Virus record (IMG/VR): IMGVR_UViG_3300001765_000076
Location: 1-64,000 of that record
DNA from: a virus
Lineage: Duplodnaviria > Caudoviricetes
Strand: one strand, 5' to 3'
Length of the DNA stretch: 64,000 nt
Position 1 is the stretch's first letter. Each line of letters opens with the position of its first letter. Position numbers and translations under genes: made by a program. The notes under the pieces were generated by a model, which was not told the origin of the DNA, searched no databases, and saw nothing but the letters and a program-made list of their open reading frames with translations. This document shows positions 1,051 through 3,044 of this stretch, piece by piece.

Positions 1051-1144
1051 GCATAACGTTTTGCAGATAGGCGATGGTTGCCTACGATAAATTTAATTAT
1101 TAACCGAGAAGTTTCTGGCAACTATTGCCTATGTGCTGTTAGGT
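1051..1144. repeat. attC-like site 1 (94 bp)
   Basis: GCATAAC(1051-1057)...GTTAGGT(1138-1144); inner arms GCAGATAGGCGATGGTTGCC / GGCAACTATTGCCTATGTGC are complementary. Confidence 0.8.
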
Positions 1145-1171
1145 GCAGTGCTTCTCACAAATTGAAACAAA

Positions 1172-1348
1172 ATGAACAAAATATTGATATGTGTTTTACT
1201 GCAAATCGTTCTTTTTATACCATTCTATTTGATTTGGAGGAATGATTGCAAAAAAATAGGTAAAGACAACTTAGCAGTCAGTTTACAAGAACGATTTTTG
1301 TACTGGCTCATATTTTGTCCAATTTGGTTGGTAGGTGTCTTGGATTAG
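1172..1348 (+). CDS. cassette A ORF, 58-aa hydrophobic (probably two-TM) peptide
   Basis: Translated by hand: MNKILICVLLQIVLFIPFYLIWRNDCKKIGKDNLAVSLQERFLYWLIFCPIWLVGVLD*; fills the space between attC1 and attC2. Confidence 0.65.
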   Translation: MNKILICVLLQIVLFIPFYLIWRNDCKKIGKDNLAVSLQERFLYWLIFCPIWLVGVLD

Positions 1349-1354
1349 CATTGC

Positions 1355-1489
1355 ACCTAACGTTTTAGCAGCTATGAAATTGAAGCGGTTTGCGGGAGAG
1401 TAAACTTTAGTACTTAGAAAATGGTAATGCGGGCTACAAGCCTGATAAATGAGATAAAGACAGCTTTGTTTCATAGGTGCATGTTAGGC
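1355..1489. repeat. attC-like site 2 (135 bp)
   Basis: ACCTAAC(1355-1361)...GTTAGGC(1483-1489); arms GCAGCTATGAAATTGAAGC / GCTTTGTTTCATAGGTGC. Confidence 0.8.
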
Positions 1490-1520
1490 GTAGTACTTTA
1501 ATTTTTAAATTCAAAATATA

Positions 1521-1691
1521 ATGACAACAATCGAAAAAAGAGTAATTGTCGAAAAGACAAAATGTGGAGTTTATTTTTATACACTCCAAATCAGAAAATG
1601 GATAATGCCGTTTTTTAGAACGAAATGGAAAACAATCACACCAGAATGTCAACCTTCGTATGAAGAAGCAATAAACTTAATCAAAGAATAA
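1521..1691 (+). CDS. cassette B ORF1, 56-aa hypothetical protein
   Basis: Translated by hand: MTTIEKRVIVEKTKCGVYFYTLQIRKWIMPFFRTKWKTITPECQPSYEEAINLIKE*. Confidence 0.6.
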   Translation: MTTIEKRVIVEKTKCGVYFYTLQIRKWIMPFFRTKWKTITPECQPSYEEAINLIKE

Positions 1692-1692
1692 T

Positions 1693-1902
1693 ATGGAAAA
1701 CTTACAACAGATAATGGCTTGCTGTGAACAATGGCCTAATTGTGAAGGACACATGGATATTTATGAGGAAATAATCGCAAAAGAAGCAATTGAAAGTTTA
1801 CTTGAAAAGGTTGAACCTATTTCAGAAGAAAAAACGTCAAAGAACGGAGAACCAACGTCCTTAATTAATGCTATTAAACGAGCAAATGGTGATATTTCTT
1901 AG
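1693..1902 (+). CDS. cassette B ORF2, 69-aa hypothetical protein
   Basis: ATG 1 nt after the ORF1 stop; its stop abuts the cassette-end repeat. Confidence 0.65.
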   Translation: MENLQQIMACCEQWPNCEGHMDIYEEIIAKEAIESLLEKVEPISEEKTSKNGEPTSLINAIKRANGDIS

Positions 1903-1908
1903 TATTAC

Positions 1909-2030
1909 GCCTAACGGCTGCGTGTATGGCACGTTGCTAATACAGAACTTAATTTGAAATACTAAAATTTAATAATATGAATAAAGATAATTTGAAACCA
2001 CGAAGCAATGTGCTATACACGTTGTTAGCA
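1909..2030. repeat. attC-like site 3 (122 bp)
   Basis: GCCTAAC(1909-1915)...GTTAGCA(2024-2030); arms CGTGTATGGCACGTTGCT / AGCAATGTGCTATACACG (16/18 complementary). Confidence 0.8.
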
Positions 2031-2189
2031 AATCGTTATTTTGGCGGTTTGAAACGATGGTTTATGCTAAGATATTATAAAGGTTGTTTAAGAGAAACAC
2101 TTGTAAGAACAATAAAAGGCGAACAAGGATTAGAGTTGGCTCGTAGATTTTTTAACTATAAAATTTACCAACTATCTAAGCCAAAATAA
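1977..2189 (+). CDS. cassette C ORF, 70-aa basic protein starting inside attC3
   Basis: ATG lies in the attC3 loop; stop is just before the cassette-end repeat TTTGCTAAC. Confidence 0.55.
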   Translation: MNKDNLKPRSNVLYTLLANRYFGGLKRWFMLRYYKGCLRETLVRTIKGEQGLELARRFFNYKIYQLSKPK

Positions 2190-2194
2190 TGTTT

Positions 2195-2220
2195 GCTAAC
2201 TATTATATATACACAACTAA
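2195..2220 (-). other. candidate attI-like primary recombination site
   Basis: GCTAAC core closing cassette C is followed by TATTATATATACACAACTA with no long hairpin (minus strand TAGTTGTGTATATATAATA-GTTAGC); 17 bp from the recombinase ATG. Confidence 0.4.
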
Positions 2221-2237
2221 TATTTAATTAATTGATT

Positions 2238-3044
2238 ATGAACATAAAAAGTAAGTCAACTCTCGAAAAGTTTGAAAAATCTTTGAGATTTAAAAACTAT
2301 TCTGATAGAACTATTGAAATGTATTTACATTATTCGGAAAAATTTTTAAATGAATTTGAAAAGGATATTTATCATATTTCACAAAAAGATGCGGTTAATT
2401 ATTTAATTAATAAAAAATATACATCAATATCTCAACAGAATCAAATAATAAATTCGATAAAGTTATTATATAAATATGTTGTTAGTTCTAAGATAGTTAT
2501 TTTAGATATAGAAAGGCCTCGAAAATAAAAAACATTACCAAGAGTTATTGATAAAGATTATCTCTTAGAAAAAATATCAAAGATTAATAATATCAAACAT
2601 AAAATTATAATTTCACTTGCATATTCAGTTGGTTTGAGAGTTTCGGAAGTAATAAACTTAAAAATAAAAGATATTGATTCTAAGCGGATGGTTATAAATA
2701 TAATTCAATCTAAAGGAAGAAAAGATAGGATTGTACCTTTAACTCAAAATATATTAGATTTACTAAGAATTTATTTTAAAGAATATAGACCAGTTGAATA
2801 TATGTTTAACGGTCAGTTTTCAAATCAATATAGTTCAACATCTTGTAATCAAATTATTAAGAAATATTTAGGTGAAAATTACCACTTTCACTTATTGCGA
2901 CATAGTTGTTTCACTAATCTAACAGACAACAACGTGGATATCAGAGTCATACAAAAGTTAGCAGGTCATAGTTCAAGTAAAACAACTGAAATATATTGCC
3001 AAGTTTCTAAAAACACACTTAGAAATTTACCACTTGCAATATAA
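2238..3044 (+). pseudogene. tyrosine recombinase/integrase (N-terminal SAM-like domain plus catalytic domain) with one in-frame TAA at 2526-2528
   Basis: ORFs 2232-2528 and 2634-3044 are in the same frame; read-through gives RPRK*KTLPRVI...SLAYSVGLRVSE...KGRKDR...HLLRHS...LAGH...TTEIY with all catalytic R-K-H-R-H-Y residues. Confidence 0.9.

Follow-up and report, generated by a model that had tools for sequence, protein, structure and literature searches.

The stretch of DNA analysed here (the window: the first 64 kb of a 78-kb contig, virus record IMGVR_UViG_3300001765_000076, about 30% GC, with nothing readable upstream of position 1) carries near its start an inserted array of three units, A, B and C, which is followed by the gene of a Xer-like tyrosine recombinase. 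Each unit is bounded by an inverted repeat of its own, with one half at either end, and these own-end repeats were confirmed. Comparative sequence analysis indicates that the units are probably cassettes of an integron-like capture system present in phages of the Flavobacterium type and in Flavobacterium chromosomes. Five kinds of observation were used: the anatomy of the array, the covariation of its arms, the break points of homology between related cassettes, a variant with an empty site and the linkage of the arrays to a recombinase gene. The features of the array are as follows.

1041–1057, + strand: left border of the inserted array, resembling a right arm and ending in GCATAAC.
1058–1137, + strand: hairpin core 0, part of cassette A; spacer GTTTT at 1058–1062, inner stem (from folding) 1063–1082 / 1117–1136.
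1138–1152, + strand: left outer arm of cassette A, GTTAGGTGCAGTGCT.
1172–1348, + strand: open reading frame (ORF) A, 58 amino acids (aa), a small hydrophobic protein; its stop codon, TAG, shares bases with the right arm at the outer end of the latter.
1347–1361, + strand: right outer arm of cassette A, AGCATTGCACCTAAC; 14/15 with 1138–1152, G·T at position 11.
1362–1482, + strand: hairpin core A, part of cassette B; inner stem (from folding) 1368–1379 / 1469–1480.
1483–1497, + strand: left outer arm of cassette B, GTTAGGCGTAGTACT.
1521–1902, + strand: the two ORFs of cassette B, 56 aa at 1521–1691 and 69 aa at 1693–1902; the second TAG overlaps the right arm.
1901–1915, + strand: right outer arm of cassette B, AGTATTACGCCTAAC; 14/15 with 1483–1497, G·T at position 11.
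1916–2023, + strand: hairpin core B, part of cassette C; inner stem (from folding) 1920–1938 / 2004–2022.
2024–2040, + strand: left outer arm of cassette C, bulged type; the TCG versus CA type of bulge is present in other loci too.
2185–2200, + strand: right outer arm of cassette C, closing the array at ...TGCTAAC.
2201–2237, + strand: attI-like junction TATTATATATACAC..., separating the final AAC from the ATG of the recombinase gene.
2238–3044, + strand: Xer-like tyrosine recombinase gene, 268 codons, with a TAA interruption at 2526–2528.

Paired ends and arm design

The initial annotation had proposed that every unit is bounded by its own inverted repeat, paired with the far end of the same unit and not with the neighbour. 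All three pairs were verified: 1138–1152 with 1347–1361 in A and 1483–1497 with 1901–1915 in B, each at 14/15, and 2024–2040 with 2185–2200 in C, in which nine pairs are separated from five more by a bulge of one base, where TCG on the left faces TG on the right. The choice of partner was borne out as well, own ends pairing at 14/15 compared with 11/15 when A is crossed with B. The A and B arms differ at three positions, each of which is compensated in the far end of the same unit, and their sole mismatch is identical, a left-arm G at position 11 opposite T. The two ends of the site fit the inverse core/core consensus RYYYAAC/GTTRRRY (ACCTAAC...GTTAGGC and GCCTAAC...GTTAGCA); cassette C departs from it (TGCTAAC, GTTAGCA).

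Inverted repeats may arise by chance in AT-rich DNA. Within the 78-kb contig only two GTT/AAC-anchored pairs with at least 11/12 further matches were counted, against a mean of 0.95 in 40 shuffles, and this in-contig count alone is not significant. The A and B pairs, however, fall exactly at consecutive hairpin borders (chance about 2 × 10−6 for a pre-specified pair, by our own estimate made without a tool), they have the identical mismatch and their design recurs in 250 cassettes. The weight of the paired ends thus comes from the exact hairpin-border position and the recurrence elsewhere and not from in-contig counts. Chance, to which we assign a practically negligible probability, is refuted by the cross-locus data.

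A BLAST search of phage records showed that Flavobacterium phage hattifnatt9-1 has this structure too, as does a 462-kb phage that is uncultured. About 130 related loci were surveyed using two purpose-written scanners, one detecting hairpins by their inner stem and the other detecting GTT...AAC arm pairs; AAC and GTT are demanded by the scanners and their invariance is by construction. The collection comprises 250 distinct cassettes with 188 distinct left arms and lengths of 82–2950 nt (median 305 nt), and the longest ORF is on the strand of the G arm in 219 of the 250. Exact matches to a 17-mer taken from core 0 (3' inner arm) were obtained in 65 viral contigs, nearly all of which hold true copies. 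In bacterial genomes (596 Gb) the same 17-mer, which covers one core subfamily, gave 48 matches, close to our own chance estimate of about 70; some 15 of these are real and are located mostly on small contigs, and the scan is of little weight for chromosomes.

Arms consisting of ten Watson–Crick pairs, a G·T and four further Watson–Crick pairs were found in 147 instances versus about five stems that are Watson–Crick throughout. For a profile free of selection on the arms, 144 cassettes were defined solely by consecutive inner hairpins. The Watson–Crick fraction in this profile is 0.63–0.82 at positions 4–9, 0.48 at position 10 and 0.56–0.69 at positions 12–15. At position 11 the fraction of G·T is 0.71 and that of Watson–Crick pairs is 0.08. 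From position 16 on the values are those of the background (0.19–0.30), and pairing with the neighbouring arm across the same hairpin is also near background. Variant arm classes retain the G·T and have in addition either T·T at position 10 or a bulge of one base; cassette C is of the bulged class. The arms had been described as cassette-specific; this does not hold strictly, as GTTATAGGTAGGGCT starts 27 different cassettes and the A-type arm starts nine.

Some regularities of the genes themselves were also recorded. Cassette ORFs begin about 30–40 nt past GTT after a conserved leader (TCTCACAAAYTTAAATARAATG in the commonest subfamily). The distance from the end of the gene's stop codon to the end of the cassette is 13 nt in 75 of the 250 (30%), a kind to which A and B belong, and 1 nt in 35 of 250 (14%). 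Unrelated genes thus sit exactly between shared flanks. The recombinase-proximal cassettes at loci L116, L124 and L129 seem, from a reading of their translated tails, to code for DNA methyltransferase-like proteins, which would suggest an anti-restriction cargo.

Unit borders and the predicted folded site

Homologous cassettes from different contigs were compared in 22 pairs, with 20 informative right ends and 18 informative left ends. Right-end homology stops no more than 1 nt from ...AAC in 16 of the 20 informative pairs; the sequence beyond is unrelated and is sometimes not a hairpin. Left-end homology mostly spans the upstream core to the preceding AAC, including in a pair from a rarer core family (c181/c227). 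Core 0 with the A-type arm and leader is common to other loci, the shared stretch beginning at 1051–1054 and reaching the start codon of genes that are not related in other respects.

An empty form of the site was obtained from run X1 (microbial mat), which holds 96% of the stretch and is probably the source sample; none of the runs holding the stretch was listed as RNA. In one contig, position 1053 is joined to position 2197, TAAC being the four bases that could come from either side. In a sibling genome GCATAAC is therefore followed directly by TATTATAT, just before the Xer-like gene, and exactly 1058–2200 is missing. This contig (joint GCATAAC/TATTAT) also carries nearby substitutions, and no target duplication was found at the X1 empty site. 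Contigs from runs X3 and X5 continue after ...GCATAAC-G into a different core (GTTGTGTGTATGAAACG...). A second joint in X1, from 1700 to 2400, was discarded as it has only 21 nt on one side. No left arm complementary to the right-arm-like sequence at 1041–1057 was found within the whole 78-kb contig, and 1041–1057 probably represents the half of the insertion site that was there before.

The end of homology at AAC, the upstream core that is carried along and the exact absence of 1058–2200 together lead to a unit composed of core, GTT arm, gene and arm ending in AAC, in this order. From these sequences the crossover would be placed directly after AAC on the + strand, which corresponds to the position between G and TT on the − strand.

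The initial annotation had assumed a cut between G and TT on the + strand with the hairpin downstream, i.e. the canonical layout of TT arm, gene, arm ending in AAC, downstream hairpin and G. The RYYYAAC...GTTRRRY ends and the gene-then-hairpin order do resemble a textbook cassette, and in two cassette pairs the homology breaks on the left directly before GTT. The canonical layout is nevertheless at odds with the shared homology that stops at AAC in 16 of 20 pairs with unrelated sequence beyond, and with the empty-site variant, which lacks 1058–2200 and not a GTT-to-GTT segment. It also conflicts with the arrays that close at AAC without a hairpin beside the recombinase gene in at least ten loci and with the start of ORF C inside the upstream core. 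This ORF (1977–2189), the sole long one of cassette C, has its start in the upstream hairpin's loop and continues across the left arm, which is consistent with the core belonging to the cassette. We consider the canonical layout very unlikely for these units.

With the layout revised, the cut point and the unit content of the earlier proposal were abandoned, and its idea of units that were once circular and recombined at the conserved GTT/AAC triplets was retained. The junctions in relatives mostly fall at these triplets, as seen in the right ends within 1 nt of AAC. The recurrence of cassettes beside different neighbours was found for other cassettes of the family and not for the window's own ORFs: no relatives of the window cassette proteins were present among the fetched related loci, and a Pfam search gave no family for them.

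Reconstituted circle junctions were folded in silico. The expected long outer stem is formed; it is the same whichever core is used, and in this respect the folds agree with the canonical layout as well. The circle junctions fold at −25.7 to −30.2 kcal/mol on the + strand and at −17.1 to −20.7 kcal/mol on the − strand. In the array state the + strand folds at −16.9 to −20.4 kcal/mol and the outer stem is largely unpaired. The folded site has two stems with a spacer of 4–6 nt on one side and 0–2 nt on the other, and shows G·G, T·T and G·T mismatches instead of bulged bases. For a count of wobble pairs, 195 inner stems were aligned using Watson–Crick pairs only; the remaining pairs on the gene-sense strand comprise 245 G·T/T·G versus 56 A·C/C·A. 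In canonical integrons the folded bottom strand is cleaved between A and C of AAC (PMC5027507). The better fold of the + strand, the wobble pairs on this strand and the canonical cleavage at AAC together point to the + strand as the one that would fold.

A conserved G·G is present at inner-stem position 4 in cores 0 and A (1066/1133 and 1371/1477), and 101 T·T and 68 G·G mismatches were counted across the inner stems family-wide. These mismatches are possible counterparts of extrahelical bases.

The same pairing may instead act in RNA: the leader and trailer of the transcript would pair (G·U being allowed) to protect or process the mRNA, and the shuffling would be the result of homologous recombination between hairpins, as has been proposed for the promoter/stem-loop (PeSL) cassettes of T4-type phages. 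This explanation accommodates the location of all wobble pairs on the gene-sense strand, the conserved leader after the left arm, the fixed offsets of the stop codon in the right arm and the lack of a recombinase in most carrier phages. It does not accommodate the precision of the breaks at AAC, which persists where the shared sequence is no longer than 4 nt (TAAC), for instance at the empty-site joint, or the tyrosine recombinase gene and conserved junction that end the arrays in many independent loci. In addition, the core triplets are those of integron sites, and no sigma-70-like promoter or terminator-like site was found in the cores by a scan that excludes Bacteroidota promoter types. An RNA role of this kind is unlikely in our judgement; the RNA and DNA-recombination readings are compatible and do not exclude each other.

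Recombinase gene and proposed capture mechanism

The product of 2238–3044 contains Phage_int_SAM_4 and Phage_integrase domains and scores under every NCBIfam cut-off. The best model is of the XerA type (179–187 bits, cut-off 220), and the integron integrase model TIGR02249 scores 143–154 bits (cut-off 265) as two stretches that skip the IntI insertion. The closest solved structure is XerA (4a8e), with IntI4 next. The in-frame TAA at 2526–2528 occupies a position at which intact relatives have E (RPRKEKKLP) and is a nonsense mutation. The gene as read here is likely to be a pseudogene, and with a broken recombinase the array would probably be frozen in this phage unless helped in trans.

16 relatives of the recombinase were found in viral contigs (45–73% identity), at least eight of them with hairpin arrays upstream on the same strand. 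The junction, consisting of an arm ending in YAAC and an AT-rich sequence, is located 27–65 nt before the ATG in at least ten related phage loci. About seven of these junctions read YAAC/TAT..., and the closest relative has TATTATATAT. A putative primary insertion site that adjoins the recombinase gene and from which the array runs outwards is thus present in at least ten phage loci, and a similar one in one Flavobacterium chromosome.

Relatives with 37–47% identity were found in 47 of 101 sampled Flavobacterium genomes, often at contig ends. On a 2.96-Mb Flavobacterium contig, at least ten hairpins with 15-bp G·T arms end at AAC about 140 nt before the recombinase gene. This is the one clear array among six Flavobacterium chromosomal loci that were inspected. 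A second locus shows a few hairpins, and in the other four the 11 kb upstream are free of them; these four may be other Xer paralogues. The chromosomal relatives have longer open frames of about 350–430 aa from stop to stop, and the one that was translated (L161) is extended at its N terminus by about 80 aa. Many of these relatives lie less than 1 kb from a contig end, as expected beside repeat-rich arrays.

We infer a circular intermediate that folds as a single strand and catalysis by the Xer-like enzyme. A cassette would consist of the hairpin core, the GTT left arm, a short leader, the gene or genes and the right arm ending in AAC. In the free circle the right and left arms would flank their own core, and the gene-sense strand would fold into one long hairpin. 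The folded site is predicted to have a 15-bp outer stem with the fixed G·T at position 11, an asymmetric unpaired spacer, an inner stem of 12–20 bp and a large loop. The small Xer-like recombinase encoded at the array end would exchange strands at AAC of this site, the partner being the site beside its own gene, with the empty form GCATAAC/TATTATAT. One unit would be added per insertion, at the recombinase-proximal end, after which the arms would be separated to opposite ends of the cassette; this would give rise to the paired ends noticed in the initial annotation. Full pairing only in the circle may favour the insertion of circles over the excision of resident cassettes. The long duplex arm and its G·T may replace the recognition of extrahelical bases by the extra domain of classical IntI.

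The units could also be taken for transposable elements of the miniature inverted-repeat type (MITEs) with 15-bp terminal inverted repeats and a transposase acting in trans. Units of 82–2950 nt (median 305) with 15-nt inverted repeats match the formal definition used by MITE finders. Thousands of 'MITEs' common to Flavobacterium genomes and phages have been listed in a census (PMC11602168) and might overlap with the present cassettes. No single transposase, however, could recognize 188 different arms by sequence, the flanks are always hairpin cores and not random targets, and the empty site has no target duplication. No transposase was found near the array, where there is a tyrosine recombinase instead. 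We regard a MITE origin as highly improbable.

Several points weigh against the proposed capture system. The recombinase gene of the window itself carries a nonsense codon. A tyrosine recombinase is lacking altogether in the majority of phages that bear these arrays, including a complete cultured phage; a PF00589 gene is absent from hattifnatt9-1, from the 462-kb phage and from a 100%-complete 126-kb phage. Mobility in such carriers would thus depend on the host, or on another phage infecting the same cell, to supply the enzyme. The left break directly before GTT, without the upstream core, was seen in 2 of 18 informative pairs, and exchange on the other side, or ordinary recombination, would therefore occur too. 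Many cores form one highly conserved family, and the upstream homology could in part reflect family conservation and not co-mobility. The G·T pairs fit an RNA structure in the sense transcript equally well. In Polaribacter phage P12002L, the single hairpin of the family that others have tested, P12002L_attC1, was also the sole phage site that IntI1 failed to recombine (PMC9892861), which fits a different enzyme and is not positive evidence. Finally, the circle, the enzyme-made product and the single-stranded intermediate are all deduced from the comparison of sequences.

As for the surroundings of the array, a polyvalent-protein ADP-ribosyltransferase domain (PF18760, domain search) is located directly upstream at 2–643, truncated by the contig start. 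Minus-strand genes predominate in a long run from about 9.7 kb on in the contig, the longest having 1931 codons.

Comparison with integrons, Xer recombination and stem-loop cassettes

The arrays resemble integrons in the RYYYAAC/GTTRRRY ends and in an imperfect palindrome of 95–135 nt with two stems and an unpaired spacer, with a crossover that would take place at AAC of the better-folding strand. New units adjoin the recombinase gene. When read on the − strand the order is also that of an integron, with the recombinase gene divergent, an attI-like site, the G/TT point and the cassettes. In both systems a cassette begins with bases that are complementary to those at its own other end, and class 1 cassettes too pair past 7 bp.

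Eight class 1 integron cassettes from plasmids were used as controls for this pairing. The own-end pairing is exactly 12 bp, not 7, in the aacA4-like, aadA2, qacL and aadB cassettes, 10 of 12 in aadA1, 8 bp in cmlA1 and dfrA16, and 7+3 in blaCARB-2. The initial annotation had described the stem as about twice the canonical 7-bp R box. It does run to 15 bp with a sharp end, but the contrast was overstated, the controls reaching 8–12 bp. Pairing past the 7-bp box is therefore not peculiar to the phage family; the fixed length of 15 and the invariant G·T are. The pairing to about 12 bp in class 1 cassettes may be a general and little-noticed feature.

Differences from integrons are found in the enzyme, the layout and the site. 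The recombinase of the phage family has 265–270 aa, is Xer-like and is without the IntI insertion, which has been stated to be essential for integron function (Smyshlyaev et al., 2021). The genes of the phage family face the recombinase. Whereas an attC site is located 3' of a promoterless gene and moves with it, here it is the hairpin upstream (5') of the gene that moves with the gene, and the gene is on the folding strand. The outer stem has a length of 15 bp and includes an invariant G·T, there are no clear extrahelical bases, and the spacer is 4–6 versus 0–2 nt, compared with the canonical 5–6 nt in each arm (PMC5027507). The carriers of the phage family are Bacteroidota phages and chromosomes.

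A separate integron lineage of Bacteroidota and their phages, without the IntI-specific domain, may be represented here, a suggestion that we make tentatively and lean slightly against. Such a lineage would combine a plain Xer-like enzyme, the 15-bp arm with its G·T, a bias towards capture, an upstream control hairpin for each gene and gene expression that needs no shared promoter. The lineage might stand near a Xer-like ancestor of integrons or be a convergent reinvention. In the integron field the IntI insertion and the extrahelical bases are taken as the key elements, and cassettes as promoterless genes with a 3' attC. In the present arrays the same chemistry is seemingly achieved with a simpler enzyme, a longer arm with a fixed mismatch and a site 5' of the gene, and the carriers are virulent phages and members of a phylum in which classical integrons are rare. 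The paired-end rule (10 bp, G·T, 4 bp) is a signature by which cassettes can be found and oriented, and it allows strand choice and the balance of capture and excision to be addressed. It bears on the exchange between phages of small early genes, e.g. anti-restriction methylases. We found no description of the extended arm or of the cassette system in the literature.

Clusters of attC sites lacking integron integrases (CALINs) have been described in virulent phages, Polaribacter phage P12002L among them (Qi et al., 2023; PMC9892861). P12002L bears hairpins and 15-nt G·T arms of the present family: P12002L_attC1 (L132 30005–30059) is a short family hairpin, and attC2 of Qi et al. is the array end read on the other strand. 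The cargo of the phage CALINs includes DNA methyltransferases, as it seems to at L116 and L124. Qi and coworkers treat the sites as ordinary attC sites 'with divergent directions', and the extended arms, the reversed layout and the dedicated recombinase are absent from their account. By definition a CALIN has at least two attC sites within a few kilobases and no integron integrase nearby. The window array is formally a CALIN, its adjacent gene being non-IntI and broken, and the arrays of hattifnatt9-1, the 462-kb phage and the complete 126-kb phage are fully so.

In the integration of CTX-phi at dif by XerCD, a Xer enzyme acts on a folded single strand that mimics the duplex core and exchanges one strand. 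Among known mechanisms it comes closest to what a recombinase that has no IntI domain would have to do. It differs from the present system in that here the recombinase is encoded by the element and single-gene cassettes are inserted in a row, in place of a phage genome. A dif-like site of the 11-6-11 kind, in which two inverted 11-bp arms flank a spacer of 6–8 bp, was not found. As duplex DNA, the right arm is no inverted repeat of the inner arm next to it, and two duplex arms are present only when the site is folded.

PeSL cassettes of T4-type phages are shuffled by a process that is ascribed to homologous recombination. They are similar to the present cassettes in that small phage early genes, each behind a conserved stem-loop and leader, are shuffled among genomes. 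The present cassettes differ in the exact breaks at a 3-nt triplet, in arms that covary across the gene and in the linked recombinase.

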